Part shown: piece after piece, positions 13,276 to 62,494 of the stretch
Numbering within the stretch: position 1 is the stretch's first letter
Layout of the letters: every line of letters starts with the position of its first letter
Notes under the pieces: model-generated
Databases searched by the model: none
Told to the model about the DNA's origin: nothing
What the model saw: only the letters and a program-made list of their open reading frames with translations
Translations under genes and position numbers: made by a program
Source: Candidatus Omnitrophota bacterium
GTDB lineage: Bacteria > Omnitrophota > Gorgyraeia > JABMRN01 > RBG-13-46-9
Assembly (NCBI GenBank): GCA_020346285.1
Contig: CP070780.1
Location: 1,113,021 to 1,177,020 of the forward strand
Direction of reading: 5' to 3'
DNA: 64,000 nucleotides

Positions 13276-13290
13276 TTGATAGGATATAAA

Positions 13291-14973
13291 ATGAAAAGAT
13301 TTGTGAAGACCACCGGCCAAATGGCGGAAGCGAGGGATTATTGCTGGGAGGTTTATGAGACGGTACTTGCGCAATTATCCGAAAGGCTGAATTCTATCCA
13401 CAATGTTTCCTATCCTGCCAGGTATTGGGCAATTCTTATGGGTTCCTGGCTTTTACACTTTATCGAGGTGCTCTATGATAGATACAAAAGAATAGAAAAA
13501 ACCTTAGAGCTTTTCCCGGATTTTTACACCAGCGCACTCCCGGAGGAAAAGTGTTCGCTTGTATCTTCCGATACGTATGATTTTTTAGTCAGAAAAGTAT
13601 CACGTAACAATTATTATAACCTCAAGTTATTCAGCATGGTAGTGCGCAAGTTGTGTCCCCAACATGTGAGAGATAGGGATGTTACGCCGAAAGTCGAGAC
13701 CGGACCCAAAACACTTTCCTTTAAGCATAGCCTGAAAAGAGAAATATTTTATAAACTTCTCCGACTATTCGATATCTTTATAAAGAATCCCATAGTTTTA
13801 AGCGATATGTATCATTTGGACCCTATGGATATTCTGGCGCTGAAATTTAAGAGTTTGAAGACACTGGTTTTTATGGATTTCGAGCCATTGCTGGACTATG
13901 ATGTTTCAAAGAATTGCTATTCCGACAGCATGAGAAAGAAACTGAAATTGGGGGAAAGTAGTGATAGATTTCAATCATTGCTTTATAAGGTCATTCCCGA
14001 CGCGATACCCACATGCTATCTGGAGAATTACAGAATATACAAAGACAGTATCGGCCGCGCCAAAAACACGATGCCTATAAGTGCAATAGGGTCTGCCATA
14101 GGTTGGTTTTTTAATGAAAGGTTCAAGTTTTTTGCCGCAGAAGCGTCATTAAAAGGAACTCTCCTTATAGAGTTTCAACGCGGAGGCAACTTCGGTTATG
14201 CCGCTGTTCTCTCACATGAGGCAATGACTTTACTGGAAAAAGATATTTTTTACACGTGGGGATGGACCTCGGAAATAAATAACAAAACAAAACCTCTGCC
14301 GTCTCCACACCTTTCTAAATTGAGAGATACCCATTCAACAAAACTCGATAACGTTTTATTTATAGGTGTAGTTATGTCCCGATATCACTATAGATTTCAA
14401 AGCGCGCTCCTATCCGATGATATGCCTGGCTATTTTGAAGACAAGAAGATATTTTTCCAGGCCCTGTCAGAAGAAATTAAAAATAAGGTCCTATACCGCC
14501 CTTATGTAGATGACCGTGGATGGGGGGAGTTGGATAAAGTAAAAAAAGTATGCCCTAAAGCAAAATTTATATCAAAGGGCAAAGCTATAAAATGGATGCA
14601 GAGAGTAAAGTTGGTGGTTATAGACCATCCGCACACAAGCTTTCTTGAGGCCTTGGCTATTAATGTCCCTTGCGTTTTTTATTGGAAACACGATGTTTAT
14701 TCTATACGCCCGGAAGCAGAGAGGTATTTCGAGCTGTTAAGAGATGCCGGCATTGTTTTTAAGGATCCGTTAAGCGCCGCCGAGAAGGTTAAAGAGATAT
14801 TCAATGACCCGATGAATTGGTGGCAGAGTGACGGCGTTCAAAAAGCCCGCTTCGAATTTTGTAAACGATTTGCTTACGCCGAAAAGAATTGGCTAAAGAT
14901 ATGGACAGAAGAATTAAAAAAATTTCATGTAGACATATCCAAGAAAACAAAAGATGCAAAAGCACATTGTTAA
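13291..14973 (+). CDS. large hypothetical protein, TagF-like/CMP-sugar-transferase-like C-terminal domain (putative surface-carbohydrate transferase)
   Basis: About 560 aa. The C-terminal VKLVVIDHPHTSFLEALAINVPCVFYW resembles the donor-binding segment of TagF/capsule transferases and carries an HP dipeptide, as in sialyltransferase HP motifs. It is a paralogue of the ORFs at 19363 and 51158. I prefer the ATG at 13291. Confidence 0.35.
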   Translation: MKRFVKTTGQMAEARDYCWEVYETVLAQLSERLNSIHNVSYPARYWAILMGSWLLHFIEVLYDRYKRIEKTLELFPDFYTSALPEEKCSLVSSDTYDFLVRKVSRNNYYNLKLFSMVVRKLCPQHVRDRDVTPKVETGPKTLSFKHSLKREIFYKLLRLFDIFIKNPIVLSDMYHLDPMDILALKFKSLKTLVFMDFEPLLDYDVSKNCYSDSMRKKLKLGESSDRFQSLLYKVIPDAIPTCYLENYRIYKDSIGRAKNTMPISAIGSAIGWFFNERFKFFAAEASLKGTLLIEFQRGGNFGYAAVLSHEAMTLLEKDIFYTWGWTSEINNKTKPLPSPHLSKLRDTHSTKLDNVLFIGVVMSRYHYRFQSALLSDDMPGYFEDKKIFFQALSEEIKNKVLYRPYVDDRGWGELDKVKKVCPKAKFISKGKAIKWMQRVKLVVIDHPHTSFLEALAINVPCVFYWKHDVYSIRPEAERYFELLRDAGIVFKDPLSAAEKVKEIFNDPMNWWQSDGVQKARFEFCKRFAYAEKNWLKIWTEELKKFHVDISKKTKDAKAHC

Positions 14974-18194: not shown

Positions 18195-19271
18195 ATGCTG
18201 AAAAAAGATATTTTAATTAACGAAGGCGCGTCCATAAAGGATGCCTTGAAGAAATTAGATAAGAGTGCTGAGAAGGTATTACTGGTAGTAGATGAGAAAA
18301 GACACCTGTTGGGAACGATGACAGACGGAGATGTCAGGCGCTGTATTTTAACCGGTAAACATCTGGGAGATGGCATAGGCGAAGTCTATCACAAAAAGCC
18401 CATTCATATAAAGAAAAAAGATTTTTCACAAGAAGTAGTGAAAAAGATAATCGTTGGAAAGAGAATAGCGCTCGTGCCGATAGTAGATGAGGGTAATAAG
18501 ATAATAGATTTCGTAACAAGAGATGAGTTATTGTTAGAAGGAAAGATAGAGCCGTTAATTACAGACAAGTTAGATATACCAGTTGTTATCATGGCAGGAG
18601 GAGAGGGCACGAGATTGGACCCCTTCACCAGGATTCTCCCAAAGCCATTAATTCCTATAGATGATAAGCCCATCGTTGAGATAGTTATAGAAGAATTTAA
18701 AAGACAGGGCCTCAGCAAGTATTATTTAACATTAAACCATAAAAGCGGAATGATAGAGGCATATTTTGATGGCATAGACAAAGACTATGAGATAAAATTT
18801 ATAAGGGAAAACACCTTTTTGGGAACCGCCGGCAGCCTAAGGCTTTTAGAGAAAGAGATCGGCAGCATATTCCTTGTTTCTAATTGTGACGTTATTGTTA
18901 AAACAGATTTTGGGGAGGCATTAAATTTTCATAAAGAACAGCGCGCACTATTAACAATTCTCTCTCCCATCCAGCACTACAAGATTCCTTATGGGGTTGT
19001 AGAATTTAAACAAGGCGGAGAGGTTAAAACTATCATTGAAAAACCAGAGTATACCTTTACCGTCAATGCAGGGATTTACGTGCTGAGTAAAGAATCACTG
19101 CAATTTATGCCGGAAAGGTCACGCTTTGATATGACTGATCTGATAAGGGCCTTGATCGAACATGATAAAAAGGTTGTTATGTATCCGGTAAATGAATGTG
19201 ATTATATAGATATCGGGCAATGGGATAAATATCAGAAAACTGTCAGCAGTTTAAAAAGTCGTATGAGATGA
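18195..19271 (+). CDS. CBS-pair + sugar-phosphate nucleotidyltransferase (PtmE-like)
   Basis: The N-terminus has tandem CBS motifs (ILINEGASIKDALKKLDKSAEKVLLVVDEKRHLLGTMTDGDVRR). The C-terminal NTP-transferase domain begins PVVIMAGGEGTRLDPFTRILPKPLIPIDDKPIVE. The same architecture is known from Campylobacter PtmE of the legionaminic acid pathway. Confidence 0.7.
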   Translation: MLKKDILINEGASIKDALKKLDKSAEKVLLVVDEKRHLLGTMTDGDVRRCILTGKHLGDGIGEVYHKKPIHIKKKDFSQEVVKKIIVGKRIALVPIVDEGNKIIDFVTRDELLLEGKIEPLITDKLDIPVVIMAGGEGTRLDPFTRILPKPLIPIDDKPIVEIVIEEFKRQGLSKYYLTLNHKSGMIEAYFDGIDKDYEIKFIRENTFLGTAGSLRLLEKEIGSIFLVSNCDVIVKTDFGEALNFHKEQRALLTILSPIQHYKIPYGVVEFKQGGEVKTIIEKPEYTFTVNAGIYVLSKESLQFMPERSRFDMTDLIRALIEHDKKVVMYPVNECDYIDIGQWDKYQKTVSSLKSRMR

Positions 19272-19276
19272 TATAG

Positions 19277-19363
19277 AGGGTAAGGCATGAGTTTGATATA
19301 AGAATGTTTGCGGATACCTCAAAATATATAACAGGCCACAATCTTGTTGTAGATGGTGGTTGA
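19277..19363 (+). pseudogene. relic of the C-terminus of a short-chain dehydrogenase (SDR) gene
   Basis: The intergenic frame reads ...MFADTSKYITGHNLVVDGG* and ends at TGA 19361-19363. This is the canonical SDR C-terminal motif (YITGq.l.VDGG), with no upstream body. Confidence 0.5.
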
Positions 19364-21150
19364 TGCAGTATATGAATCTGACTAAAAATAAAATGATTAT
19401 AGCAGTTACAAACTTAAATCTATTTGCAGCTATTAAATTGCTGACTAAAAATAGCGGTTATACCGTTTTGTATTACGAAAGATGTATCCCCGATTTTTTA
19501 TATCATCTATTAGAAAAAAGGCATCACATCAGAGAGTGCAGCAAAAGAAATAACCCCGAATATCTGAAAAATGTAGAAAATGAAAAAGAAACATTTCACC
19601 TGTCATCTAATATAGCAGGCCATGATGACTTGGCAAGTTTCATGGAAGAGATAAGCGATATCTTTTGTATTAAAAAATCACATATTAAATCCACCATGAT
19701 TAAACATTTTGTCAAATTGATAAGAGACGATATAACCCTGATGGGACTGGTAAAAAATAAATATAAGGCTAATGAAAAGGCTGAATATTGGGTGAAAAAT
19801 TACGACATTTTTACCCGACTCTCTAATTTAAACGATAATTTTATTAAAGTAAGTCAACTAAGATTATTTGATATAGCGTATGCGTGTTACATATCTATTT
19901 GGCCTATCCACATTTTCCTGTTTTTTGTTAACGGTATATTTAAAAAACGTAAGAAGCAAAATATAAAAATCGTATTCCAGCAATCATACAAGAAACGTTT
20001 CGGGCATAATCCGGAATTCGAGGCTTTTTTTAGATATTTTAAGACAAGAAACGATGTGGCTTACCATTGTTTTAAAAAGAGCGATGGAATATATCAGGCC
20101 GTGGAATCCTCCGGCAAGCCGGCTTTTACTACTCGAGATTTAAGATTGCCATTATCGGAAGGTTTATTATTAGGTTCTCTTTTATTTAGATTAGTTTTAC
20201 TTTTCCCTAAATATAATCCCCCCCAGAAGACAACGTTTTGGAGGATACTCCTTTGTATTTTCAGGGAGTATGCAGTAACAAAAAGTATATTACTGGAATT
20301 TTCACCCAAATATTTCATTCGCATACGCCAGGAGCTACACGAAAACCACCCCGTAACAACAGGGGTATGCGAACTTCTCGAATGCAGCCACATTGGTTAT
20401 GAACATGGTCCGCCTGTTTATTTTGTCGCAGATTATGCATTAACGGATTTTCATTATTTAGGTGTAATGGGTAAATCATCTATGACTGACATTTATGAAA
20501 ATTGCAAATCGGATATCAAGTGGTCCGTCCTTGGCCCGATAACCGCAGATATATGTTATGACATGCCTGTCCCGAGACGCGACTTTAAAACCATTACTTT
20601 AATAGCAGATTATTATCTTTTGCCCTGGGGAATTTTTCCTTATGAAAGTTATTTCAACGAAGTATTTTTCCCGCTTATAGATTTTATGAAAAATATAAAG
20701 AACGTGAAATTAGTATATAGAATCAAAGCCGTTAAAAAAGAGGGCAAAGCGGCATATGTAAAAAATTTATGCAAACGGCATAATATAAAGTGTGATATTG
20801 AATATTCAGCATCCGGGAAGGATATCTCCGGTTTTTCCTCATATACACTAAGAAAATCTGATTTGGTTGTTGTTCGCGGTACTTCTACAATTGCCTTTGA
20901 GTCTCTTTCACTTGGGAAAAAAGTCATTGTTTTCTGTAACAATCTAATGAAACACCCGCTGGAATCCTTTGCTCCGAAGTTAGCTGTAAGAAGCGGTGAG
21001 GAATTCAACAAAACAATATCCTGGTTATGGGGTGTACCATATCCTGAATATATCAAAAGTATAGAACATATCATCAGGCAGACTTGCAAGAAAGCAAACG
21101 GGAAAATGGTTAAGGAATTTTTTGAGGATTTTGTAGGAATAGATAAATGA
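19363..21150 (+). CDS. large hypothetical protein, TagF-like C-terminal domain (putative surface-carbohydrate transferase); start uncertain
   Basis: About 590 aa. The C-terminal SDLVVVRGTSTIAFESLSLGKKVIVF...HP has the same pattern as the ORFs at 13291 and 51158. Several candidate starts exist (TTG 19360, ATG 19363, 19372, 19393). Confidence 0.35.
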   Translation: MQYMNLTKNKMIIAVTNLNLFAAIKLLTKNSGYTVLYYERCIPDFLYHLLEKRHHIRECSKRNNPEYLKNVENEKETFHLSSNIAGHDDLASFMEEISDIFCIKKSHIKSTMIKHFVKLIRDDITLMGLVKNKYKANEKAEYWVKNYDIFTRLSNLNDNFIKVSQLRLFDIAYACYISIWPIHIFLFFVNGIFKKRKKQNIKIVFQQSYKKRFGHNPEFEAFFRYFKTRNDVAYHCFKKSDGIYQAVESSGKPAFTTRDLRLPLSEGLLLGSLLFRLVLLFPKYNPPQKTTFWRILLCIFREYAVTKSILLEFSPKYFIRIRQELHENHPVTTGVCELLECSHIGYEHGPPVYFVADYALTDFHYLGVMGKSSMTDIYENCKSDIKWSVLGPITADICYDMPVPRRDFKTITLIADYYLLPWGIFPYESYFNEVFFPLIDFMKNIKNVKLVYRIKAVKKEGKAAYVKNLCKRHNIKCDIEYSASGKDISGFSSYTLRKSDLVVVRGTSTIAFESLSLGKKVIVFCNNLMKHPLESFAPKLAVRSGEEFNKTISWLWGVPYPEYIKSIEHIIRQTCKKANGKMVKEFFEDFVGIDK

Positions 21151-21160
21151 GGAAATAAGG

Positions 21161-22549
21161 ATGAGAGTTTTGCTGGTTGCGTATGACAACGCTTCCTATA
21201 CACATTGGTTTCCGCAAGGGTTGGCATATATTGCTGCGGTTCTCCTAAAGGAAGGGCACGATGTAAGAATTTATAATCAGGATAAATTTCATTACCCGGA
21301 CAGCCACCTTACGGCGTATTTGGACAAAAACAGATTTGACATTGTTGGCGTAAGCGTAATAGCGGGGTATTATCAATATAGAAAATTACTGAAAATTTCT
21401 GATGCAATAAATCAATCTAAAAATCGTCCGTTTTATATCCTAGGAGGCCATGGCCCTTCGCCCGAACCCGATTTTTTTATTAAAAGAAGCCTGGCCGATG
21501 CGGTTATTATGGGCGAAGGCGAAAATACGATCATTGATTTAATAGAAACCATAGGTGCAAAAAGGCGGCTTGCGGATGTTAAGGGAATAGCATTTCGCGA
21601 TGGAGAAAAAGTGATTATTAATGAAAAACAACCCCTGATCGAGAATATAGATAGCATACCACCTCCCGCTTATGATTTGTTCCCGATGCATTATTATGGG
21701 CTAAGAAGAGCGCCTCACGCTACAAAATTTGATTTTGTAATTGATGTTATATCAGGCAGAGGCTGCAAGTTTAAATGTACTTTTTGCTATCGCATGGACG
21801 AGGGCTTTAGACCGCGAAGTTCTGAAGCCATTATAGATGAAATTAAATTTCTGAAAGATAAATATGGCATTACCTATGTCACTTTTGCCGATGAGTTATT
21901 GATGTCGTCGGTTGAAAGGACAGAGGCCTTGTGCAAAAGTTTTATCAAAGCCGGATTAAATATTAAATGGAGTTGCAACGGGAGGCTAAATTATGCCAAA
22001 TCAGACGTTTTAAAACTTATGAAACAAGCAGGGTGCATGTTTATTAATTATGGCGTTGAGGCAATGGATGACCAGGTTCTTAAGAATATGAAGAAAGCAT
22101 TAACCGTCAAACAGATTATTGAAGGCGTTGAAGCTACATTAAAGGTGGGGGTAAGCCCCGGTTTAAACATTATTTTTGGAAATATCGGCGATAATAAGGA
22201 AACCTTGAATAAGGGGGTTGAATTTTTATTAAAATATGACGACGGGGCACAACTACGCACTATTCGACCGGTAACTCCATATCCCGGTTGCCCACTTTAT
22301 TATTCTGCTATAGAAAAGGGGCTTCTTAAGGATTGTGAAGATTTTTATGAGAACAAACACACAAATTCGGATTTAGTAGCTGTTAATTTTACAAACTTGG
22401 ACGACGAGGAGTTTCATAAGTGTCTATTAAAGGCTAATACCAAATTAATCGAGAATTATTTCAGAAAAAAATCAAGAGTTATTATTAAACAGGCTAAAAA
22501 ACTTTATCTTGAAAAAGATACTTCTTTTCGAGGTTTTCGTCAGCTCTAA
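21161..22549 (+). CDS. B12-binding (class B) radical SAM protein
   Basis: The N-terminal domain has FYILGGHGPSPEP (GG.H). The radical SAM motif is SGRGCKFKCTFCY. Confidence 0.8.
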   Translation: MRVLLVAYDNASYTHWFPQGLAYIAAVLLKEGHDVRIYNQDKFHYPDSHLTAYLDKNRFDIVGVSVIAGYYQYRKLLKISDAINQSKNRPFYILGGHGPSPEPDFFIKRSLADAVIMGEGENTIIDLIETIGAKRRLADVKGIAFRDGEKVIINEKQPLIENIDSIPPPAYDLFPMHYYGLRRAPHATKFDFVIDVISGRGCKFKCTFCYRMDEGFRPRSSEAIIDEIKFLKDKYGITYVTFADELLMSSVERTEALCKSFIKAGLNIKWSCNGRLNYAKSDVLKLMKQAGCMFINYGVEAMDDQVLKNMKKALTVKQIIEGVEATLKVGVSPGLNIIFGNIGDNKETLNKGVEFLLKYDDGAQLRTIRPVTPYPGCPLYYSAIEKGLLKDCEDFYENKHTNSDLVAVNFTNLDDEEFHKCLLKANTKLIENYFRKKSRVIIKQAKKLYLEKDTSFRGFRQL

Positions 22550-22590: not shown

Positions 22591-23562
22591 ATGGAACTCA
22601 AAGAAGCTGTTAAAAACAGAGTTGCTTTAGGTAAAAGGCCAAGATTGATTGAAAATGTATTGCTAATTGAGGGAATTGCCAGGGCAGGGAAATTTCTGCT
22701 TGCGAATTGCCTCTGTGCCATAAATGATGTAGAACATACCTGCTCCAACGGCCTTTTAGACAATATTCCTTTTATGGTAAAATTCAAACTGCTCACGCCA
22801 GAGGCAGCCGAAGCCCTTATTCAGAACATAATAGATAACTCGGGGTACGATATCATGATAGGGAGAAATCTCAATTTTCGATACGATGACAAGAGCTGTA
22901 TTTATAACTCCCCAAGGCTAAAAGAATATCTGGACAGGAGCCTAAACTCTGACCGAGATGTTATTGTAGAACAGATTAAAAATAAAAGGCGTTATTTTAT
23001 GCATATTGTCCACCAGGGTTTTCCGAATATCGAAATATTCCTTCGGATGTATTCTAAGATTAAGGTCATTAGAATTGAAAGACATCCCGTTGATTTAGTT
23101 TATTCATGGTTTCAGAGGGGGTTTGGCCGGCGATTGGGCCGAGATGCCCGATTATTTATTATACCGATCCAAGGAATAAAAGGGCCTATACCGTGGTTTG
23201 CACATGAATGGGCCGAGGATTATGAAAATTCATCCGAGATGGATAGAGTAATCAGATTCCTTTACTATATAAATGAAAAAAGCAAGGAAGCATATGTTAA
23301 TCTAAACATGGAAGATAAAAAAAAGATACATACCGTGTCGTACGAGCGCTTACTTACAGAGACAGACGAAGAAATGAAAAAAATAAGCATTTTTCTGGAT
23401 AAAAAAATATTGCCAGGGATCGAGCTAGTCAAGGCGCGCGAAAGAATCCCGGCACCTAATCCTGCATTGGTAAGGAATAAAAAAATGAATTTTATTAAAA
23501 AACAGACTACACCGAAAATCTTTTCCGCACTTATGGCGATGGAAAATGGATACGAGAAATAG
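22591..23562 (+). CDS. sulfotransferase-family protein (P-loop, PAPS-dependent type)
   Basis: IEGIARAGKFLL resembles the 5'-PSB P-loop (PK.G(T/S)T.L). IRIERHPVDLVYSW resembles the 3'-PB motif (R(D/N)P.D...S.Y). I prefer the ATG at 22591 (GGAGGG RBS). Confidence 0.55.
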   Translation: MELKEAVKNRVALGKRPRLIENVLLIEGIARAGKFLLANCLCAINDVEHTCSNGLLDNIPFMVKFKLLTPEAAEALIQNIIDNSGYDIMIGRNLNFRYDDKSCIYNSPRLKEYLDRSLNSDRDVIVEQIKNKRRYFMHIVHQGFPNIEIFLRMYSKIKVIRIERHPVDLVYSWFQRGFGRRLGRDARLFIIPIQGIKGPIPWFAHEWAEDYENSSEMDRVIRFLYYINEKSKEAYVNLNMEDKKKIHTVSYERLLTETDEEMKKISIFLDKKILPGIELVKARERIPAPNPALVRNKKMNFIKKQTTPKIFSALMAMENGYEK

Positions 23563-25762
23563 AAAAAAAATAAAGATAATCACGACACTAGGACCATCGA
23601 CGAACACCGAGAAGGATTTAAGAAACATAAAGGACAAAGGCGTTGATTTTGTACGAATCAATATGTCCCACTCCAATCTCAACGATTTAAAATATTTCAT
23701 AGATATTTCAAAGAAGATAGACATACCTTTTATCCTGGATACAGAGGGCTCGCAAATAAGGGCAGTTCAACTTGGCAGGGAAAAAATCGAATTTAAGGAA
23801 GGGGATATAATAAAAATTTATAATCGAACCATAGCAGAAAACAGGGAAAAGATATGCCTACAGCCGGGGTCTATTGTAGGGCAGTTGAAGAAAGGAGATC
23901 TGATATTCGTTGATTTTAATACGTTGGTCCTTAGGGTATCAGATATTTCTATGATTACCGACGGCTATATTTCCGCGATAGTTGTTACCAACGGAATGCT
24001 CGGAAACAACAAATCTGCTGTTATTGTTTCGGGAGAACAAAAACACTTTGGATTGCCCGTTTTAACCGAAAAAGACAGAAAATCTATTCAATTGGCTTTG
24101 AAAGAAGGGATAGGGCATATTGCCGTTTCTTTTGTAAGAAGGGGGAGGGACCTTGATGAGGTAAGAAAAACGACAAATAACACAATGCGTATCATCGCAA
24201 AAATAGAATCAAAAGAATCTTTGGAAAATATAGATGAAATAATTGAAAAAACAGACGCACTTTTGATTGACAGAGGAGATCTTGGTAAAGAGATTCCGAT
24301 TGAAAGAATACCCTTTATCCAGAAGGCTGTATTAAAAAAAGCGCACGAAAGACAAAAGCCGGTATTTATCGCAACAAACCTTCTCGAATCTATGGTTGAG
24401 AAGAAAAAGCCTACAAGGGCGGAAGTCAATGATGTTATAAATACCATTTTGGACGGGGCAGATGGCTTGGTTTTATCAGCCGAAACCGCTATCGGAAAAC
24501 ACCCCATGGGATGCATCAATATACTGAACAGGCTTATTAAATATTCAGATTCCGCAAGAAATCTTAACTATGTTAGTCGTTTTTCCGATTTTAGCACTGT
24601 TTCATTAATAAAACCGCATGGAGGCAGATTAATCGAAAGATTCGCCGATAAATTACCCGGCGATTCAGATAAATTGGTAAAAATAAAACTATCCGAAGAA
24701 CAGCAAATGGATGTTGAGCAGATTGCTGTCGGGGCATTTAGCCCTTTGGAAGGCTTTATGTGCAGAAATGATTTTCAGGGTGTCCTCGACAATATGCGGC
24801 TTGTAAGCGGGGTTGTATGGCCGATTCCAATCGTGCTTGATATTTCAAAAGAAGAGGCGAAAAAGATTTCTATCGATAATGAGGTAGCCTTAATCGGTGA
24901 TAAAGACGAAATTATGGCCATCCTTCATGTAAGGGATAAATACGATTTTGACAAAAAAGAGATAATAAATAAGTTATACTGCACGGACGACAAGAGGCAT
25001 CCCGGTGTAAAAATGGCAATGAAAATGAAGCCGATCTTAGTGGGCGGCGAAATTGATTTGGTAAAGAGAAGAGAGTCCGAATACAAGGAATATGAGCTTA
25101 CCCCAAGGCAGGTGCGAAAACTGTTCGAAGATCGAAATTGGATGAAGATTGCCGGTTTTCATACAAGAAACGCAATACACAGGGTGCATGAATTTATACA
25201 ATTAAAGGCGTTGGAAAAAGCGCATTGCGATGGGCTATTTATTCACCCTGTTATTGGAAAAAAGAAACAAGGCGATTTTAATATCAAATACATAATAGAG
25301 GCTTATAAAAAAATGATGAAAGATTTTTATCCAAAAGATAGCGTTGTCTTCGCAACATTTTCCACCTTTTCGCGATACGCGGGGCCTAGAGAAGCTATAT
25401 TTACTGCCTTATGCAGAAAGAATTTTGGATGCAGCCATTTTATTGTAGGAAGGGACCATACGGGTGTCGCGAATTATTATCACCCAAAGGCATCCCAACA
25501 GATTTTTGACAGATTTCCCGATTTGGAAATAAAACCCATAAAATTTGATAAAGTGTTTTATTCGAATAAACTTAACAAATATATTCATGGAAGTGACATT
25601 TGTAAAGAGGGGGATTTAGGAGAAGTGCATATAAACGCGACACAGGCAAGAAAGATGTTACAGGCCCTTGAAATGCCACCGGATTGGTTTATGAGGCCCG
25701 AAATAGCTTTAATAATTTTAAACGGACTAAAGAACAAGGAGGAAGTGTTTGTCAAAGAGTAA
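23546..25762 (+). CDS. fusion protein: pyruvate-kinase-like N-terminal domain + full ATP sulfurylase (sulfate adenylyltransferase)
   Basis: The first approximately 330 aa match pyruvate kinase blocks (IKIITTLGPST..E.L....KGVDFVRINMSHS; IAKIESKESLENIDEI...DALLIDRGDLG.EIP.ERIP..QK....K......PVFIATNLLESMV..KKPTRAEVNDV.N.ILDGADGLVLSAETA.GKHP). The remaining approximately 400 aa match ATP sulfurylase: the PUA-like segment HGGRLIER...LSEEQ..DVEQIAVGAFSPLEGFM, the HxxH motif GFHTRNAIHRVHE, and VGRDHTGV (GRDHAG). Confidence 0.8.
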   Translation: MDTRNRKKIKIITTLGPSTNTEKDLRNIKDKGVDFVRINMSHSNLNDLKYFIDISKKIDIPFILDTEGSQIRAVQLGREKIEFKEGDIIKIYNRTIAENREKICLQPGSIVGQLKKGDLIFVDFNTLVLRVSDISMITDGYISAIVVTNGMLGNNKSAVIVSGEQKHFGLPVLTEKDRKSIQLALKEGIGHIAVSFVRRGRDLDEVRKTTNNTMRIIAKIESKESLENIDEIIEKTDALLIDRGDLGKEIPIERIPFIQKAVLKKAHERQKPVFIATNLLESMVEKKKPTRAEVNDVINTILDGADGLVLSAETAIGKHPMGCINILNRLIKYSDSARNLNYVSRFSDFSTVSLIKPHGGRLIERFADKLPGDSDKLVKIKLSEEQQMDVEQIAVGAFSPLEGFMCRNDFQGVLDNMRLVSGVVWPIPIVLDISKEEAKKISIDNEVALIGDKDEIMAILHVRDKYDFDKKEIINKLYCTDDKRHPGVKMAMKMKPILVGGEIDLVKRRESEYKEYELTPRQVRKLFEDRNWMKIAGFHTRNAIHRVHEFIQLKALEKAHCDGLFIHPVIGKKKQGDFNIKYIIEAYKKMMKDFYPKDSVVFATFSTFSRYAGPREAIFTALCRKNFGCSHFIVGRDHTGVANYYHPKASQQIFDRFPDLEIKPIKFDKVFYSNKLNKYIHGSDICKEGDLGEVHINATQARKMLQALEMPPDWFMRPEIALIILNGLKNKEEVFVKE

Positions 25763-25779: not shown

Positions 25780-27519
25780 ATGAAGCTTTCTGATTATATA
25801 ACAAGATTTTTAGCAAAGCATACCAGACATGCATTTGTAGGAACCGGCGGTTGCATCGTTCATGTTCTTGATAGCCTGAATAAGAGTCCGCACATTCACT
25901 TGGTACCTTGCGAAAATGAACAGGGGGCTGCTATCGCGGCAGAGGCCTACTATAGAGTAAAGGGGAAGATAGGCGTTGCGATAGCAACAAGCGGGCCTGG
26001 AATGATTAATTTGATCCAAGGCATCGCATGCGCTTATTTTGATTCTACCCCGTCTTTATATATTTCAGGCGCACCTCCGACCTATCATTTAAAGGGTAAA
26101 CATAAAGTAAGGCAGATGGGTTTTCAAGAAATGGATGTTATAAAAATTGTTAAACCACTAACCAAATATGCTGTATTACTTACGAATCCTAAACGGATCA
26201 GATATGAATTGGAAAAATTAATTTATTCAGCCTTTGAAGGAAGGCCCGGGCCGGTATTATTAGATTTACCTGACGATATTCAGAGGGCGCATATTAATCC
26301 TCAAAAGTTAAAATCTTTTATTCCCAAAAGAAAAACTCCTACATTGAATAAAACGGCAATAAATAAAACAATGGGCCTTATCAAAAAAGCTGCCAGGCCC
26401 GTAATTATTGTCGGCGGCGGAGTAAAGACAAGAGACGTAAGAAAGGAATTAAAAACATTTTTAAACAAAAGCCGGATACCCTTCGCCACGACTTGGGCAA
26501 CCATAGATATGTTTTTGGATAATGAGCCTAATCTTATCGGCAATTTCGGCATATCTGCAAACAGGGCCGGAAATTTTGCCATCCAGAATTGCGATTTGCT
26601 TATTAGCCTGGGTTCTAGGCTGGATACGCATGGAGCAGGAAGCGATGTGGCCCGATTTGCGCCAAAAGCCAAAAAAATAGTTGTTGACATTGACAGAGCA
26701 GAATTAGATAAACATACTAGAATGAAAACAGATTTGAAAATTCATTGCGATTTAAAGACATTTTTAAAAGGCCTCATTAACTCTTCCGAGATAGAAACGA
26801 GGGACCTAAATCAATGGAAAAGAAAAATACAAGAATGGAAAGATAGGTACCCCATATACCTTGAGAAATATTATAAGCAGAAAAACAAAGTTAATCCTTA
26901 TGTTTTTATGAATGAACTGTCTAAGGAAACAAAAGAGGGGGATATCGTTGTTACAGAGACAGGAGCGACTTTGACCTGGACTATGCAGGCTTATAAAATA
27001 AGAACCCGGCAAGCTTTGTTCAGTGCATTCAACCATGCTTCGATGGGATATGCATTGCCCGCTGCTATCGGCGCTCAATATGCCGCGCCCGAAAACCGGG
27101 TAATATGCATCACAGGGGACGGCGGCATACAGATGAATATTCAGGAACTGGAGACAATCGCTTATAATAAGTTACCCATAAAGATTTTCTTAATTAATAA
27201 CAGGGGTTACGGAATGATCAAGCAGACCCAGGATACCTGGCTCGATTCCGTGTATGTGGCCTCGGACCCAAGTTGCGGGTTAGGCTTTCCGGATTTTCAA
27301 AAGGTCGCGAAGGCCTATAAAATAAAAACACTGCAAATCGCAAATCACGGTGAATTAAAAAAGATGATAAGGAAGGTTTTGTCCTATAAGGGGCCGGTTC
27401 TTTGCGACGTTAAATTAAGGCCCGGAGAGAAAATAATCCCTAAATTGGAATTCGGAAGGCCTTTAGAAGATATGTCCCCGTTATTACCGAGAAGCGAGCT
27501 AAAGGCAAATAGGCTTTGA
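25780..27519 (+). CDS. thiamine-diphosphate enzyme, acetolactate-synthase large-subunit-like (YerE-like carboligase candidate)
   Basis: The N-terminal Pyr domain reads GAAIAAEAYYRVKGKIGVAIATSGPGMINLIQGIACAYFDSTPSLYISG. There is a central domain and a C-terminal PP domain (ITGDGGIQMNIQELET). No small subunit is present. I prefer the ATG at 25780. Confidence 0.85.
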   Translation: MKLSDYITRFLAKHTRHAFVGTGGCIVHVLDSLNKSPHIHLVPCENEQGAAIAAEAYYRVKGKIGVAIATSGPGMINLIQGIACAYFDSTPSLYISGAPPTYHLKGKHKVRQMGFQEMDVIKIVKPLTKYAVLLTNPKRIRYELEKLIYSAFEGRPGPVLLDLPDDIQRAHINPQKLKSFIPKRKTPTLNKTAINKTMGLIKKAARPVIIVGGGVKTRDVRKELKTFLNKSRIPFATTWATIDMFLDNEPNLIGNFGISANRAGNFAIQNCDLLISLGSRLDTHGAGSDVARFAPKAKKIVVDIDRAELDKHTRMKTDLKIHCDLKTFLKGLINSSEIETRDLNQWKRKIQEWKDRYPIYLEKYYKQKNKVNPYVFMNELSKETKEGDIVVTETGATLTWTMQAYKIRTRQALFSAFNHASMGYALPAAIGAQYAAPENRVICITGDGGIQMNIQELETIAYNKLPIKIFLINNRGYGMIKQTQDTWLDSVYVASDPSCGLGFPDFQKVAKAYKIKTLQIANHGELKKMIRKVLSYKGPVLCDVKLRPGEKIIPKLEFGRPLEDMSPLLPRSELKANRL

Positions 27520-29072: not shown

Positions 29073-29759
29073 ATGCGAGAATTTAATGCGTTAAAGGGTT
29101 ATCCGCAACCGAAAGGGCCGCGTTATGTCGGAGCTGACATCAGAACAATTAAGAGCAGAATTATAGCTTCGTATCGCGATGAACGGTATTATGACGGAGA
29201 CCGCAACCACGGTTATGGAGGGTTTAAATATGACGGCCGATGGAAGAAAATAGCACAATCAATGTTTAAGGATTATGGGTTAACCGAGAACTCGGCCTTA
29301 CTCCAGATAGGGTGTGAAAAAGGGTTTCTCCTGCATGATTTTCATGAGCATTTCCCGAATATGAAAATTAGAGGAGCCGAAATGTCCGATTACGCTATTT
29401 CGCATTCCATGCCGTCGGTAAAAAAATGGATTGTAAAGATGGACAATTATACCAAGCTTCCCTTCGAAAGCGGAGAATTTGATTTTGTCATTGCTATAGG
29501 GGTAGTTTATGCCTTAACCTTAAGGGATGCTATATCTTGTCTTCGCGAAATTCAGAGAGTAGGAAAGGGCAAAAGCTTTATAACCCTGGGCGCTTATAAA
29601 GACGAACGGGGAGAAAAGCTTTTTAAGAGTTGGACGGTATTAGGTGCCACCATACTTCATGTAAATGAGTGGCCCGAGGTTTTAAAGGAAGCCCGTTACA
29701 CGGGCGATTATCACTTTATGACCGACGAATATCTAAATTTGGCAGAGAAAAACGGATGA
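29073..29759 (+). CDS. class I SAM-dependent methyltransferase
   Basis: Motif I is LLQIGCEKGFLLHDF. Motif II-like is EFDFVIAIGVVYAL. I prefer the ATG at 29073 after a GAGGGGG RBS. Confidence 0.7.
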   Translation: MREFNALKGYPQPKGPRYVGADIRTIKSRIIASYRDERYYDGDRNHGYGGFKYDGRWKKIAQSMFKDYGLTENSALLQIGCEKGFLLHDFHEHFPNMKIRGAEMSDYAISHSMPSVKKWIVKMDNYTKLPFESGEFDFVIAIGVVYALTLRDAISCLREIQRVGKGKSFITLGAYKDERGEKLFKSWTVLGATILHVNEWPEVLKEARYTGDYHFMTDEYLNLAEKNG

Positions 29760-30769
29760 AAAATCAGGATTTTTTAATAAAAATATTGGATAATAATAAA
29801 ATATTAAACCTAGAGTTTTATAAGAAATTATTTTTAATCAGAAGGAGTGAAGAGAAGATTATCGAGCTTTATCCTGAAAATGAAATGAGAATGCCAATGC
29901 ATATGTCTATGGGAGGAGAGGCAATAGCAGTTGGGGTTTGTCATGCTTTAGGAATAAAAGGCCAGGTTTTTGGAAGCTACAGATCCCATGCTATATATTT
30001 AGCTAAGACGCAAGATACGAATAATTTTTTTGCTGAGATATATGGAAAAACCACATCTTCATTAAAAGGAAAATGCGGCTCTATGCATTTGTGCGCACCT
30101 GATTTTGGGTTTATGGGAGCTTCAGCAATTGTAGCAAGTATAATTCCTGTAGCCTGTGGAACAGCTTTTGCAAATAAGAGAAAAAATAATGGTAAAATTG
30201 TTAGCGTATTTTTTGGAGATGGGGCCGTTGATGAGGGTAATTTTTGGGAGAGCTTGAATGTTGCCTCTCTTATGAAACTGCCGATTTTATTTGTCTGTGA
30301 AGATAACGCTCTTGCGGTTCATACTCCAAGGCACCAAAGGCAGGGTTATGATTCTATCGTTAGTATTGTCTCTAAGTTTAACTGTAATGTTCTTGAAGAG
30401 AGCACTACCGATACAGAAGTTATTTATAGAAAAACTTGCCAGGCTATTGAGTTAATTAGAACAACCCAGATGCCCTGTTTTTTGTATTTAAGATATTATA
30501 GGTACTTGGAGCATGTTGGTACTAAGGAAGATTTTGATGCCGGCTACCGCTCAAAAGAAGAATTTGAAAAATGGCATAAAAAAGACCCTGTAAATTTACA
30601 GAGGAAAAAGCTTTTAAGATTTGGGATAGAAGAAGAACAGATAAGAAAACTTGAAGTAGAGATAGAAGGTCGCATTGAGAACAGTATAAGGTTAGCCCAA
30701 AAAGCACCCTTCACTGAAATTAGCGAATTACACAGAGATGTCTTTTATGAAGAAAATAAGAAAGATTAG
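29756..30769 (+). CDS. thiamine-diphosphate-dependent dehydrogenase E1 component alpha-subunit homologue
   Basis: MHMSMGGEAIAVGVCHALGIKGQVFGSYRSHAIYLAK...; FFGDGAVDEGNFWESLNVASLMKLPILFVCEDNALAV is the TPP-binding GDG...N motif. The start overlaps the methyltransferase stop (ATGA). Confidence 0.8.
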   Translation: MKNQDFLIKILDNNKILNLEFYKKLFLIRRSEEKIIELYPENEMRMPMHMSMGGEAIAVGVCHALGIKGQVFGSYRSHAIYLAKTQDTNNFFAEIYGKTTSSLKGKCGSMHLCAPDFGFMGASAIVASIIPVACGTAFANKRKNNGKIVSVFFGDGAVDEGNFWESLNVASLMKLPILFVCEDNALAVHTPRHQRQGYDSIVSIVSKFNCNVLEESTTDTEVIYRKTCQAIELIRTTQMPCFLYLRYYRYLEHVGTKEDFDAGYRSKEEFEKWHKKDPVNLQRKKLLRFGIEEEQIRKLEVEIEGRIENSIRLAQKAPFTEISELHRDVFYEENKKD

Positions 30770-31799
30770 TTATTGTCAGGCATTGAATGAAGCAATGCGG
30801 CAGGAAATGGAAAGAGATCCAAATATATTTGTATATGGACTAGGTGTGCCTGACCATAAAAGAGTATTCACAACTACTGCGGGGTTGGTGGAGAAATTTG
30901 GTAAGGAAAGATGTTTTGATACCCCACTGTCTGAAGATACTATGACCGGGTTCGGATTGGGCGCGGCCATTAGCGGAATGAGGCCTATTCATATCCATAT
31001 GCGAGTTGATTTTCTTCTTCTAGCAGTAAATCAGCTTGCTAATATGGTTTCTAATTACAGATATGCAACAGCGGGGAAATTAAGAGTCCCTTTGCTAATA
31101 AGGGCTGTTGTGGGCAGGGGACGGGGACAATCTTTTCAGCATAGTAAGACTATGCATTCTATCTTTGCGCACATCCCTGGATTAAAAGTTGTTTTGCCCA
31201 CTACTCCCAGGGATGCCAAAGGGCTACTTATAGCAGCTATCAGGGATGAGAATCCAGTAATTTTTATAGAACATAGATGGTTATATTTTGCGGTTGACGA
31301 AGTTCCAGAACTACCATATACCATCCCTTTGGAAGAAGCTAATATTCTGCGTTCAGGCAGAGATGTTACAGTGGTGGCAACTTCGTGGATGAATGTAGAG
31401 GCCTTAAAAGCTGCACAGGTTCTTGAACGAAAGCACAAGATAAGCGTAGAAGTGATCGACGCCAGAATAGTAGCTCCCTTCAATGATAAGCTTATTGTTC
31501 ACTCCGTCAATAAGACAGGACATTGTATTGTGGCGGACAATGATTGGCTTGATTGCGGATTTAGTGCAGAAGTAGCTGCTCGAGTTTCAGAGAAGTGTTT
31601 CAGTCAATTAAAATCCCCTGTGCAGCGAATAGGATTTGCTCCCACTCCCTGCCCTTGCACAAAGTCTTTGGAGAATTGTTTTTATCCAAACGCAATTGAC
31701 ATTATAAAAACTATAGAATCAAAGTTAAACTTGGAAGAGGCAGATTTGTCTAATGAAGACTTTTATGGCTTTGAAAATAAGTTCAACGGTCCTTTTTAA
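30738..31799 (+). CDS. thiamine-diphosphate-dependent dehydrogenase E1 component beta-subunit homologue
   Basis: Transketolase-like Pyr domain (GFGLGAAISGMRPIHIHMRVDFLLLAVNQLANMVSNYRYATAGKLRVPLLIRAVVGRGRGQSFQHSKTMHSIFAHIPGLKVVLPTTPRDAKGLLIAAIRDENPVIFIEH) plus a C-terminal domain. Confidence 0.8.
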   Translation: MSFMKKIRKISYCQALNEAMRQEMERDPNIFVYGLGVPDHKRVFTTTAGLVEKFGKERCFDTPLSEDTMTGFGLGAAISGMRPIHIHMRVDFLLLAVNQLANMVSNYRYATAGKLRVPLLIRAVVGRGRGQSFQHSKTMHSIFAHIPGLKVVLPTTPRDAKGLLIAAIRDENPVIFIEHRWLYFAVDEVPELPYTIPLEEANILRSGRDVTVVATSWMNVEALKAAQVLERKHKISVEVIDARIVAPFNDKLIVHSVNKTGHCIVADNDWLDCGFSAEVAARVSEKCFSQLKSPVQRIGFAPTPCPCTKSLENCFYPNAIDIIKTIESKLNLEEADLSNEDFYGFENKFNGPF

Positions 31800-32630: not shown

Positions 32631-33848
32631 ATGGGAATATTGTCAAAAATCACTGATCTACTTTTAGGACAGCCGATGTTCAATCTTCTCCAGAAAGCTC
32701 AAAAAATGGAGATATCCGGAAGAAGAATCATTCACTATGAGATAGGCGATCCGAGCTTTGACTCTCCTCCCCATGCTATTGAAGCGGCAAAAGAAGCTCT
32801 CGACGCAAACTTAACGCATTATACAAGTTCCATGGGGCTTTTCGAATATAGAGAAGCGATTAGAGAATACACAAAGGCCAACTCTGGTTTTAAACCCTCC
32901 ATAGATCAGGTTCTGGCCTGCCCTGCTAATGCTGTGATTGATTTTGTTATACGCTGCACAGCTAATCCTGGCGAGGAGGTTATTTATCCCGACCCAGGTT
33001 TTCCTACTTATTATTCTGCTATTACTTATAATAAGGCGATACCAGTAGGTATTTTATTAAAGGAAGAGAATATGTTTCGGATGAGCCCTCGAGATGTCCA
33101 CGATAAAATAACCGATAAGACTAGATTAATTATCATTAACAGCCCCCAAAATCCTACAGGTGCTGTTTTGAAAGAAGAGGAGATTCTTGAATTTGCCAGA
33201 ATCGCGGAGGAACATGATATTTACCTCTTAAGCGATGAGGTCTATGCAAAGCTTACTTATGATAAAGCTCATTATTCGCCGAGCGTAAGAGATCAATGTA
33301 AGGCAAGAACCATTATTTTAAACAGTCTTTCGAAACAATATTCGATGGCGGGCTGGCGCTTGGGTTATGCTATCGGCCCTGAGAAACTAATAGAAAAAAT
33401 GGGATTACTTCTGCAAACAATAATCTCGTGTCTACCGGCCTTTACACAACTTGGAGGCAGGGCTGCGCTTCTGGGCAATCAAGAGTTTATGGATGCCAGG
33501 ATTGCCATGTTGAGAGAAAGGCGCGATATATTAACCGAAGGGCTTAATAAACTTCCCGGGGTCTCATGCGTTGTACCGGATGGGGCATTTTATGTTTTCG
33601 CCAATATAAGTAAAACTGGGATAACTTCAGAGGAATATTCAGAGAAACTTTTGCAAGAGACCGGTGTCTGTGTACTAGCCGGTAATTATTTTGGAAAAGG
33701 CGGAAGTGGATACATTAGATTATGTTATGCCAGTTCGCCGATCAGCCTTATTGAAGAAACGCTTGAGAAGATGAAAGAATTCCATGAAAAAATTGTTTGT
33801 AATTCTGGATTAGTTTGTTCTGGAGGGGAAAATGCAAAGACTTACTGA
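32631..33848 (+). CDS. class I/II (aspartate-aminotransferase-fold) PLP-dependent aminotransferase
   Basis: IIHYEIGDPSFDSPPHAIEAAKEALDANLTHYTSSMGLFEYREAI...; SLSKQYSMAGWRLGYAIGP is the Lys-containing SxSK..(A/G)..G.R.G motif. Confidence 0.8.
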   Translation: MGILSKITDLLLGQPMFNLLQKAQKMEISGRRIIHYEIGDPSFDSPPHAIEAAKEALDANLTHYTSSMGLFEYREAIREYTKANSGFKPSIDQVLACPANAVIDFVIRCTANPGEEVIYPDPGFPTYYSAITYNKAIPVGILLKEENMFRMSPRDVHDKITDKTRLIIINSPQNPTGAVLKEEEILEFARIAEEHDIYLLSDEVYAKLTYDKAHYSPSVRDQCKARTIILNSLSKQYSMAGWRLGYAIGPEKLIEKMGLLLQTIISCLPAFTQLGGRAALLGNQEFMDARIAMLRERRDILTEGLNKLPGVSCVVPDGAFYVFANISKTGITSEEYSEKLLQETGVCVLAGNYFGKGGSGYIRLCYASSPISLIEETLEKMKEFHEKIVCNSGLVCSGGENAKTY

Positions 33849-35540: not shown

Positions 35541-36368
35541 ATGCAAGAAAAAGTGCAAATGCTAAAGAAAAAAGCAAGGTGGGTGCGAACCAAGGTTCTA
35601 AATACCATAGCCAGACTAAGAAAGGGTCATCTCGGAGGTACCTTATCCTGTACGGACCTTTTGGTGGCCTTATATTACGGGAAAATCATGAGATTCGATG
35701 CTGCTAATCCAAATTGGAGCGAAAGAGACAGATTTCTTATAGGGAAAGGGCATGCCCATCTTGCCTTATATTATATATGGACTGACCTCGGATTTTTTGA
35801 TGTTCGCAAATTAGAAGAATATGGAACCGACGGTAGCTCATTAGGTTTTCAACTCGATCGTAACATTCCGGGTTCAGAATATAATACAGGTTCATTAGGA
35901 CATGTGATTGGAATCGGAGCTGGAATGGCATTAGCCGCAAAGATGGATCGCAAGGCCTATAAGACCATTGTTCTTGTCGGTGATGGGGAATGTGATGAAG
36001 GTTCTATCTGGGAAGCGGTCATGTTTGCGAGCCGATATCGATTGAATAATTTAATGACCATTGTTGATAGAAATCAGGCAACAGTCATTGAAAATAGAGT
36101 GGAAGACGATGGTTCCGGGAGATTAGAGGAAAAGTTCAAAATGTGCGGTTGGGAGTCTATAACTATCAACGGGCACTCCTTTGAGCAGATACTGTCCGCT
36201 TTCACTGGATTGGAAAAATTCAATAGGCCCCTGGCGATAATTGCCGATACGGTGAAGGGTAAAGGGGCCTCTTTTTTGGAGCAAGGGGCTAAATGGCACC
36301 ATTTGGTTCCTTCTGCAGAAGAATTTGATAGGGTAATTAGGGAGTTTGAATTGGAGGCTGAAACGTGA
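35541..36368 (+). CDS. transketolase, N-terminal (TPP-binding) subunit of a split transketolase
   Basis: HLGGTLSCTDLLVALYY...; GSLGHVIGIGAGMALAAKMDRKAYKTIVLVGDGECDEGSIWEA is the GDG...E TPP motif. It is 275 aa. Confidence 0.85.
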   Translation: MQEKVQMLKKKARWVRTKVLNTIARLRKGHLGGTLSCTDLLVALYYGKIMRFDAANPNWSERDRFLIGKGHAHLALYYIWTDLGFFDVRKLEEYGTDGSSLGFQLDRNIPGSEYNTGSLGHVIGIGAGMALAAKMDRKAYKTIVLVGDGECDEGSIWEAVMFASRYRLNNLMTIVDRNQATVIENRVEDDGSGRLEEKFKMCGWESITINGHSFEQILSAFTGLEKFNRPLAIIADTVKGKGASFLEQGAKWHHLVPSAEEFDRVIREFELEAET

Positions 36369-61255: not shown

Positions 61256-62494
61256 ATGATAGATCGTTTAAAGAGGGTTTGTTTGAAAGAAATTGATATA
61301 GATTATAATGGGCTGTTTAGACACCTCGAAGATTTAAGGAAAGTTTTGCTTGTTACGACTGGCAGGACTGGCTCAGATTTTTTTCAAAGTCTTTTAGACG
61401 GTCATTCGGAAATTTTGCAGTTTACAGGTATGTGGAAGCATCATTGGTGGTGGAAGCAAGCGAAATGCAAAGAAAATTTACCAGACTTAATTAATGAATT
61501 TATCTGGTATACATGTAGTTTTACTTTTTGTAATCATATTGCAAAATTTAAGTCTTGCTATAATAAGCAGGAACGCTGGGGTCAACTGGGAGCTAATAAA
61601 AACGAATCTTTCGAAGTAGATATGGACACCTTTAAGAATCATATGTTGAACATCTTAACCGATAAGGAGTCGAATAGTAAAAATTTCTTTTTAGCAGTTA
61701 ATTTGGCTTACGGTCTTACTACAGGAGTTGACATTAAGAAAACAAAAATAATTTTTTATCACATTCACCATTTCGAGAGATTGAAAGATTTTAAGGAAGA
61801 TTTCCCAGATTTTGACATAATTTGCACAGTAAGAGAACCACGGAATACTTTGGTCTCAGGCATAGAGCATTGGAAAAAATATGATATTAACACATATAAT
61901 TCCAGGTTTTTCTATCAGCTTTTAAAGAGAATTTTTGAAGAGTCTGAACCAATACTGCAAGATACGGGAAACATCAAGACCTTAAAATTGGAAGACTTAC
62001 ATTTATTCTCTAAAGAAACGCTAAGTGAATTTTGTCAGATGTATAATTTGGAGCTTGAGAACTGCATGTTCGAATCTTCTTATCACGGCAAAAAATGGTG
62101 GGGTGATGTTTTATCCGGCAAATATTTAGATGGCTTTAACAAAGATATTAATGAGCGGAAATGGAGAGATAAATTATTTTTTTATGACAATCTTCTAATA
62201 GAATTTATTTTGGAAGATAGATTAAGACATTATGGATATTTTATTGAGAATAAAATATCAAGAATATATTTAATCCTCATTTGGTTTTTAGTCTTTTTGC
62301 CAATGAAATATGAATTAAAGATTTTGGCTTACAATTTCAGAAGTAATAGAACCGCAAACGCCAAACTTTTAGTATTATGCAAGGGCTGGGGGTTTTATAT
62401 ACTGAGAATTCTGCTATATTTTAAATTTATTTTGAAAAAAGTTACTAAAAAAATTTTCTTGGCAGATTTTTTTATTCAAGAAAAATATCGTTAA
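61256..62494 (+). CDS. hypothetical protein with sulfotransferase-like P-loop and hydrophobic C-terminus
   Basis: VLLVTTGRTGSDFF resembles the 5'-PSB P-loop. TVREPRNTLVSGIEHW resembles the 3'-PB motif. The C-terminal approximately 60 aa are hydrophobic (ISRIYLILIWFLVFLPM...ILRILLYF). This is a weak assignment. Confidence 0.35.
   Translation: MIDRLKRVCLKEIDIDYNGLFRHLEDLRKVLLVTTGRTGSDFFQSLLDGHSEILQFTGMWKHHWWWKQAKCKENLPDLINEFIWYTCSFTFCNHIAKFKSCYNKQERWGQLGANKNESFEVDMDTFKNHMLNILTDKESNSKNFFLAVNLAYGLTTGVDIKKTKIIFYHIHHFERLKDFKEDFPDFDIICTVREPRNTLVSGIEHWKKYDINTYNSRFFYQLLKRIFEESEPILQDTGNIKTLKLEDLHLFSKETLSEFCQMYNLELENCMFESSYHGKKWWGDVLSGKYLDGFNKDINERKWRDKLFFYDNLLIEFILEDRLRHYGYFIENKISRIYLILIWFLVFLPMKYELKILAYNFRSNRTANAKLLVLCKGWGFYILRILLYFKFILKKVTKKIFLADFFIQEKYR

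Follow-up and report, generated by a model that had tools for sequence, protein, structure and literature searches.

The synthesis of 3'-phosphoadenosine 5'-phosphosulfate (PAPS) is textbook two-enzyme chemistry. The bifunctional PAPS synthases, such as Sat/CysC of Aquifex aeolicus (PDB 2gks) and human PAPSS1/2, are dedicated to this activated sulfate donor for sulfotransferases, and in no characterised PAPS synthase is an N-terminal pyruvate-kinase barrel found. The window analysed here, a stretch of 64,000 nucleotides (nt) on the 1.43-Mb contig CP070780.1 of a Candidatus Omnitrophota metagenome-assembled genome (MAG), encodes a sulfotransferase followed by a protein in which a pyruvate-kinase (PK)-like barrel is fused to a PUA_2 and an ATP-sulfurylase (ATPS) domain, and has no gene for adenosine 5'-phosphosulfate (APS) kinase. 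The favoured explanation, with a probability of about 0.7, is ordinary PAPS-dependent sulfation in a nonulosonic-acid or glycan cluster, with the APS kinase encoded elsewhere in the genome and the PK-like domain recycling ADP.

The product of the fusion gene, here called PK::ATPS, is identical to UCD54957.1, which is annotated 'sulfate adenylyltransferase'. The initial annotation had placed a PK::ATP-sulfurylase fusion directly after the sulfotransferase gene, and this description holds: the start of the fusion overlaps the stop of the sulfotransferase by 17 nt, all three domains are recognised by Pfam (PK barrel 248.7 bits, PUA_2 164.4 bits, ATP-sulfurylase 241.2 bits) and the cut-offs of two NCBIfam sulfate adenylyltransferase models are passed (NF003166, 422.3 against 387; TIGR00339, 351.1 against 322.95). 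The ATPS part is like the bifunctional PAPS synthases in combining a Sat-type domain with a PUA-like N-domain (2gks, E 1e-63), and its best solved relative is the ATP sulfurylase of Methanothermococcus thermolithotrophicus (8a8d, E 2e-97). The HxxH motif is present (H545, H548), and R541, N542, R636, D637 and H638 are conserved. In contrast to the PAPS synthases, the window fusion has no APS-kinase domain and has FHTRN and GRDHTG instead of the canonical FQTRN and GRDHAG. Both substitutions are found throughout the family; among the 121 members over which residue columns were counted, H539 (codon 25160-25162) occurs in 120 and T639 (codon 25460-25462) in 118.

The N-terminal part is like pyruvate kinase (Geobacillus stearothermophilus PK, 2e28, E 1e-56; E. 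coli PykF, 1pky) in that it has a TIM-barrel A domain and a cap (B) domain and conserves the ligands of K+/Mg2+ and of the ADP phosphates as well as the catalytic Lys, Glu, Asp and Thr. Eleven residues (R37, N39, S41, D65, T66, R72, K156, K219, E221, D245 and T277) are conserved in the columns of the 121 members, aligned with stand-alone PK-like proteins and E. coli PykF, and three of them, R37, R72 and K156, are invariant in the alignment. The eleven are taken to bind K+/Mg2+, phosphoenolpyruvate (PEP) and the ADP phosphates and to donate the proton, the three invariant ones presumably positioning the ADP phosphates as in pyruvate kinases. The domain differs from pyruvate kinase in lacking the C-terminal regulatory/tetramerisation domain. 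The PK part ends near amino acid (aa) 340 and then runs into PUA_2, no Pfam match to PK_C is found in the fusion, and because this domain is absent the score for the pyruvate-kinase equivalog TIGR01064 (298.1 bits) stays below the cut-off of 306.4. Further differences are the replacement of DTKGPEIR by DTEGSQIR, of ARGDLGVE by DRGDLSKE and of ETAKG by ETAIG, the signatures of the clade as a whole being DTEGSQIR, DRGDL(S/G)KE and ETAIG, and the position of its members, which are fused to or found beside enzymes of PAPS synthesis and not beside glycolytic genes. The most unusual feature of the locus is this PK-like domain, which belongs to a separate clade with a specific tie to PAPS synthesis.

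The same PK::PUA_2::ATPS architecture is shared by all of the best 120 homologues of the fusion (designated P), of which 24 add a C-terminal APS_kinase domain (about 930 aa) and in this respect resemble the bifunctional PAPS synthases. The closest homologue among the 120, P0001 (72% identity), is such a triple fusion, PK-ATPS-APSK, and the window fusion ends '...KNKEEVFVKE*' exactly where P0001 goes on into 'FSGLSGSGKTT...'. Of the first 112 representatives from a library clustered at 50% identity, 96 give a single alignment that spans the PK-ATPS junction. The possibility that the PK domain is a mis-joined neighbouring gene was rejected in view of this alignment and of the single uninterrupted open reading frame (ORF) found here and in more than 100 homologues. 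Source labels of the homologues, which are NCBI names of metagenome bins, include Omnitrophota, Pacearchaeota, Nanoarchaeota, Paceibacterota/Pacebacteria and Anaerolineae. A search of genome contigs with the fusion protein gave almost only ordinary pyruvate kinases, and true fusions were found only in L006 and L007. No report describing the PK/ATP-sulfurylase architecture was found in the literature; the fusion is widespread and uncharacterised. The two-enzyme chemistry is repeatedly joined, by fusion or by gene neighbourhood, to a third module that resembles pyruvate kinase and would use PEP, and the PK-ATPS junction is spanned in no fewer than about 96 clusters at the 50% identity level. Some members have extra N-terminal domains ahead of PK::ATPS (P0016, 1019 aa; P0314, 1151 aa), the one in P0016 being an NTP_transferase/IspD-like nucleotidyltransferase.

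The sulfotransferase ORF starts with an ATG 8 nt 3' of GGAGGG, and its product is identical to NCBI UCD54956.1, 'sulfotransferase domain-containing protein [Candidatus Omnitrophota bacterium]'. The initial annotation had ascribed to it elements like the 5'-phosphosulfate-binding (5'-PSB) loop and the 3'-phosphate-binding (3'-PB) motif, and both the profile search and the comparison of fold and motifs bear this out. The match to Pfam Sulfotransfer_1 (31.8 bits against a cut-off of 22, E 1.3e-7) is limited to profile positions 74-184, and that to Sulfotransfer_3 (22.6 bits) is under the cut-off of 27. The 5'-PSB-like string IEGIARAGKFLL at aa 26-37 and the 3'-PB-like string IERHPVDLVYSW at aa 162-173 coincide with the columns where conservation in the family alignment peaks: G28, G33 and K34 never vary, and conservation is 90% or higher at R31, R164, D168, S172 and W173. 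The first comprises the loop G28-x2-R31-A-G33-K34-F35 (here G28-I-A-R31-A-G33-K34-F35), which follows strand 23-28 of the model and is a sequence variant of PKSGTT / RSGTT. The second comprises R164-H-P-V-D168-L-V-Y-S172-W173, with R164 and S172 at the canonical R-x7-S spacing, and the HMMER alignment pairs R164-HPVDLVY-S172 with R-NPRDVLV-S of SULT2A8. A further residue, H141, is invariant in the family and ends strand 135-141 of the predicted model; it may be the catalytic base (His or Glu) that sulfotransferases have where the central strand ends. The model has the alpha/beta fold of sulfotransferases bound to adenosine 3',5'-bisphosphate (PAP) or PAPS, and its structural neighbours all bind one or the other. 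Profile, fold, 5'-PSB loop and 3'-PB motif together predict a PAPS-type sulfotransferase. It belongs to a small family of its own (42 clusters found), which differs from the PAPS-dependent TPST, CurM-ST and Stf type (PDB 5wri, 3ap3, 4gox, 2z6v) in sequence, the identity being only 11-15%, and in its occurrence in nonulosonic-acid clusters of uncultured lineages. No relevant report on Omnitrophota sulfotransferases was found in the literature.

A second sulfotransferase-like ORF is found in the same cluster. It has the motifs GRTGSDF (5'-PSB-like) and REPRNTLVS (R-x7-S, 3'-PB-like) and a hydrophobic C-terminal tail that is probably a membrane anchor. Its exact 412-aa sequence is absent from the protein collection, where a different start may have been called.

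The absence of cysC from the window, also claimed in the initial annotation, was confirmed by all scans. No ORF of at least 150 aa in the window has a Pfam match to APS_kinase (PF01583), tblastn against the window with two CysC sequences gave chance matches only, and a hidden Markov model (HMM) of the 24 fused APS-kinase domains run against all six frames had its best match (E 0.07) on the P-loop of an ABC transporter, which is also the only window ORF with a Walker-A motif. Nor does the window hold a counterpart of the divergent P-loop kinases of AAA_33 and AAA_18 types found beside PK::ATPS in L001 and L169. An APS-kinase domain in the same protein or locus, as in a bifunctional or trifunctional PAPS synthase, is thus lacking in the window.

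Gene context in relatives was sampled in 80 metagenome loci of the sulfotransferase family (designated L), which were scanned with profiles for PK, ATPS, APS-kinase and sulfotransferase domains and gave 64 groups after near-identical loci had been merged. An APS kinase is visible in 29 groups. Eighteen groups have PK, ATPS and APS kinase beside the sulfotransferase (11 with a separate kinase gene and seven with a triple fusion), four have ATPS and APS kinase on contigs that break off on the PK side, three, on short contigs, have the APS kinase only, and four, whose flanks lack a Sat-type sulfurylase, have a stand-alone PK-like protein and APS kinase. In four groups PK::ATPS is present and no APS kinase is visible, the flank on at least one side being short in every case. 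A PK-like gene only is found in four groups, an ATPS fragment only in one, and the sulfotransferase alone in 26, among them five with flanks of 5.9 kb or more on each side. Among the sulfotransferase homologues whose contigs were fetched, the closest two (50-51% identity, including L170 at 50%) lie in nonulosonic-acid clusters and also have no activation genes nearby. Because of these homologues and of the five groups with long flanks, PAPS supply from an unlinked locus has precedent. In L171 the gene after the sulfotransferase was checked as a possible cut PK::ATPS and rejected.

PK::ATPS adjoins an APS kinase or another P-loop protein in several loci. L116 has the same order, sulfotransferase and then PK::ATPS, followed by an APS kinase, and the gene for the B12-binding radical S-adenosylmethionine (SAM) enzyme upstream of the window sulfotransferase has a strong orthologue there (784 bits to L116:3207-4604). 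In L007, another Omnitrophota MAG, the APS kinase directly precedes PK::ATPS. Look-ups of two-domain fusions, made independently of the 80 loci, gave further arrangements. In L166 (10260-11600) and L167 (10293-11669) a fusion of APSK with Inositol_P, a CysQ-like PAP phosphatase, lies directly downstream of PK::ATPS; an STT3/AglB oligosaccharyltransferase gene near the sulfation genes of L167 suggests an archaeal N-glycan context. L001 has a small AAA_33 kinase (6728-7279), a sulfotransferase and a CysQ-like gene beside PK::ATPS, and L169 has an AAA_18-like P-loop protein (11210-11827) in the same place. These two small P-loop proteins resemble the APS-kinase profile only marginally (E about 1e-3) and, as no canonical APS kinase is found in either locus, they may be non-canonical APS kinases.

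The PK-like clade is also found unfused. In marine loci (L163:10972-12566, L148, L153-L158, L161, L162 and L165) a stand-alone PK-like barrel of about 337 aa lies between the sulfotransferase and the APS kinase, with no Sat-type ATP sulfurylase in the flanks. These proteins belong to the same clade as the fused domain, with the signature RGDLS[RK]E, and RGDLS[RC]E was read in the four that were checked. The order in L163 is CBS-nucleotidyltransferase, GFO oxidoreductase, CMP-transferase, short-chain dehydrogenase/reductase (SDR), sulfotransferase, PK-like protein, APS kinase and TauE. A TauE/SafE-family anion transporter, which may be a sulfate importer, adjoins the sulfation genes in two unrelated loci (L163:12634-13377 and L126:3531-4262), and no gene of this type is found in the window.

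The PK-like domain is best explained, from its sequence and its neighbours, as a PEP-driven recycler of ADP to ATP tied to the APS-kinase step, because its catalytic residues are intact, because an APS-kinase domain shares the protein with it in roughly one in five close homologues and because members of the clade adjoin the APS kinase also in loci, such as L163, that have no Sat-type sulfurylase close by. In the window the ATP-sulfurylase domain would convert ATP and sulfate to APS, an APS kinase encoded outside the window would convert APS to PAPS with release of ADP, and the fused PK-like domain would regenerate ATP from this ADP at the expense of PEP. The PK step would in this way supply both ATP-consuming steps and remove ADP. 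APS kinase is inhibited through the dead-end complex E.ADP.APS formed with this product, and the equilibrium of ATP sulfurylase is very unfavourable, so that local removal of ADP and supply of ATP would help. The sulfotransferase would then transfer sulfate from PAPS, the 3'-phosphate being held by R164 and S172, to an acceptor containing a nonulosonic acid, and the second, membrane-tailed sulfotransferase would use the same PAPS. The APS kinase is most likely encoded outside the window elsewhere on the contig, and the missing kinase is probably a matter of gene location and the puzzle an ordinary one. If the PK-like domain does recycle ADP for APS kinase, it would be a natural counterpart of the PK-coupled system used in vitro, and the fusion could serve enzymatic PAPS regeneration. 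An uncharacterised PK-like clade wired into PAPS synthesis, and a sulfotransferase family dedicated to nonulosonic-acid clusters, are of lasting interest.

Several observations weigh against an ordinary pathway with an unlinked kinase. No APS kinase, CysQ or any P-loop kinase is encoded within 22 kb upstream or 38 kb downstream, and the absence of a nearby APS kinase is a minority state among PK::ATPS-bearing loci. A weak search for homologues with the APS-kinase domain of P0001 gave no protein from the source contig among the 120 matches listed. In L003/L004, L005, L107, L126 and L168 sulfotransferase and PK::ATPS occur together, and the flanks available show no APS kinase; the arrangement thus recurs and might be functional as it stands. 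Finally, both family-wide changes in the ATPS domain (Q to H and A to T) fall in motifs that contact sulfate and APS.

The best placed of the alternatives, though itself unlikely, is that the module is a remnant in which the APS kinase has been lost and the sulfotransferases are idle or are fed with PAPS or APS kinase by a host or partner cell. The small source contig and the end of the window fusion exactly at the boundary of a domain that its closest homologue has would fit such a loss, as would the reduced lifestyle that has been proposed for many Omnitrophota. Against it, both ORFs are intact and translationally coupled with all conserved catalytic residues kept, and a second sulfotransferase has been retained in the cluster.

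It is improbable that the fusion is unrelated to the sulfotransferase, either by making APS for assimilation, a use that Sat-type enzymes also have, or by activating another oxyanion in an altered anion site. The substitutions in the two sulfate-contacting motifs, FHTRN and GRDHTG, speak for the latter. However, the fusion gene overlaps the sulfotransferase gene, its relatives across metagenomes lie beside sulfotransferases, APS kinases and CysQ-like phosphatases in glycan clusters, and no APS/PAPS-reductase or sulfite-reductase family is found among the annotated neighbour genes of the fusion loci.

The initial annotation had left two donors for the sulfotransferase, PAPS made elsewhere or APS used directly. 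The first is supported by the Arg and Ser of the 3'-PB motif, by the PAPS-binding fold and by the kinase beside or fused to PK::ATPS in relatives, while the second gained no positive support and is disfavoured. A genome that lacks APS kinase altogether, with a sulfotransferase drawing its sulfate straight from the APS that the adjacent fusion makes, appears very improbable. Such use of APS would agree with the lack of the kinase from the window and from the available flanks of the other loci named above, and with the lack of a protein from the source contig among the listed matches to the P0001 domain. Yet R164 and S172 are conserved family-wide at their canonical spacing, members beside an APS kinase share the same motifs so that no subgroup has an APS-specific signature, the structural neighbours are without exception PAP or PAPS binders, and we know of no APS-dependent member of the sulfotransferase fold.

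Least credible is a replacement of the APS kinase by the PK-like domain, with PEP phosphorylating APS and the two-domain fusion alone making PAPS: the divergent signatures of the clade, its restriction to sulfation contexts and the loci with no APS kinase nearby are in its favour, but about 20% of the close homologues hold PK, ATPS and APS-kinase domains in one protein, many others and the stand-alone PK-like proteins adjoin a kinase gene, a redundancy not expected of a substitute, R37, R72 and K156 are invariant, and phosphorylation of the ribose 3'-OH is to our knowledge without example in the PK fold. Sulfation without any APS kinase, here and in like loci, whether by a sulfotransferase that accepts APS or by a PEP-dependent step of the PK-like domain, is thus given only a slight chance; if true, it would be sulfate-donor biochemistry new for this enzyme fold.

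With regard to the acceptor, the loci of the sulfotransferase family are rich in nonulosonic-acid genes. Among the 80 loci a CMP-transferase is found in 32-35, a 4,6-dehydratase in 27, NeuB in 26-27, a DegT aminotransferase in 24-26, a NeuC-like epimerase in 22 and a CBS-nucleotidyltransferase in 17. The last gene type lies just upstream of the sulfotransferase in related loci, for example L116 and L163, and the order CMP-transferase, SDR, sulfotransferase recurs. As the window in turn has two NeuB and two CMP-transferases, the likely product is a sulfated nonulosonic acid (the genes are of legionaminic type) or a glycan containing one, a reasonable prediction from genomic co-occurrence. Animals are reported to have 8-O- and 9-O-sulfated sialic acids (PMC9304399, PMC13634767), with Golgi sulfotransferases acting on sialoglycans. 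The product here, if the acceptor is correctly assigned, would likewise be a sulfated nine-carbon keto-sugar acid, the link to nonulosonic acids being a purely genomic one. No report of a sulfated nonulosonic acid from prokaryotes was found in the literature. The presence of the family in legionaminic-type clusters predicts such sugars on prokaryotic surfaces, a modification so far known from animal sialic acids.

The features of the locus and its surroundings are given in Table 1.

Table 1. Positions of the sulfation genes, their domains and other features in the window
Feature	Position	Strand	Evidence
CBS-domain sugar-1-phosphate nucleotidyltransferase, legionaminic-acid-pathway type	18195..19271	+	Pfam
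B12-binding radical SAM enzyme, directly upstream of sulfotransferase	21161..22549	+	Pfam
Sulfotransferase, 323 aa	22591..23562	+	Pfam Sulfotransfer_1 and family alignment
PK-like::PUA_2::ATP-sulfurylase fusion, 738 aa	23546..25762	+	Pfam, NCBIfam
Pyruvate-kinase barrel and cap domain of the fusion, aa 7-322	23564..24511	+	Pfam PK
PUA_2 (aa 355-507) and ATP-sulfurylase catalytic domain (aa 515-725) of the fusion	24608..25720	+	Pfam, NCBIfam
Acetolactate-synthase-like thiamine diphosphate (ThDP) enzymes (two)	25780-27519, 33832-35520		
E1 alpha/beta pair	29669-31799		
Split transketolase	35541-37300		
TIGR04372 glycosyltransferase	43285-44505		
ABC exporter, fused membrane and ATPase domains, 19 kb downstream of PK::ATPS	44520-46280		
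Second sulfotransferase-like ORF, 412 aa, same cluster	61256..62494	+	Pfam Sulfotransfer_3, 27.4 bits against a cut-off of 27

The window is from about 0.5 to 63.3 kb (478-63316) one long glycan-biosynthesis cluster, mostly on the plus strand, with an even GC content of 0.34-0.44. A partial aminotransferase ORF is found at one end and a partial MFS-like transporter ORF at the other. In addition to the NeuB and CMP-transferase genes the cluster has six DegT-type aminotransferases and ten radical SAM enzymes (five B12-binding, four SPASM and one other). Three large ORFs (13276-14973, 565 aa; 19360-21150, 596 aa; 51158-53128, 656 aa) are matched by no Pfam or NCBIfam model and lack a counterpart among the 80 sulfotransferase-family loci; the 596-aa ORF is flanked on one side by the gene for the CBS-nucleotidyltransferase and on the other by that for the B12-binding radical SAM enzyme ahead of the sulfotransferase. 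About 4% of the contig, positions 478-63316 of the window, is given over to heavily modified sugars. A fused ABC exporter recurs near PK::ATPS, being found in L003 (13645-15423), L005 (6248-8017), L168 (265-2034) and L169 (1-1783) as well as in the window.

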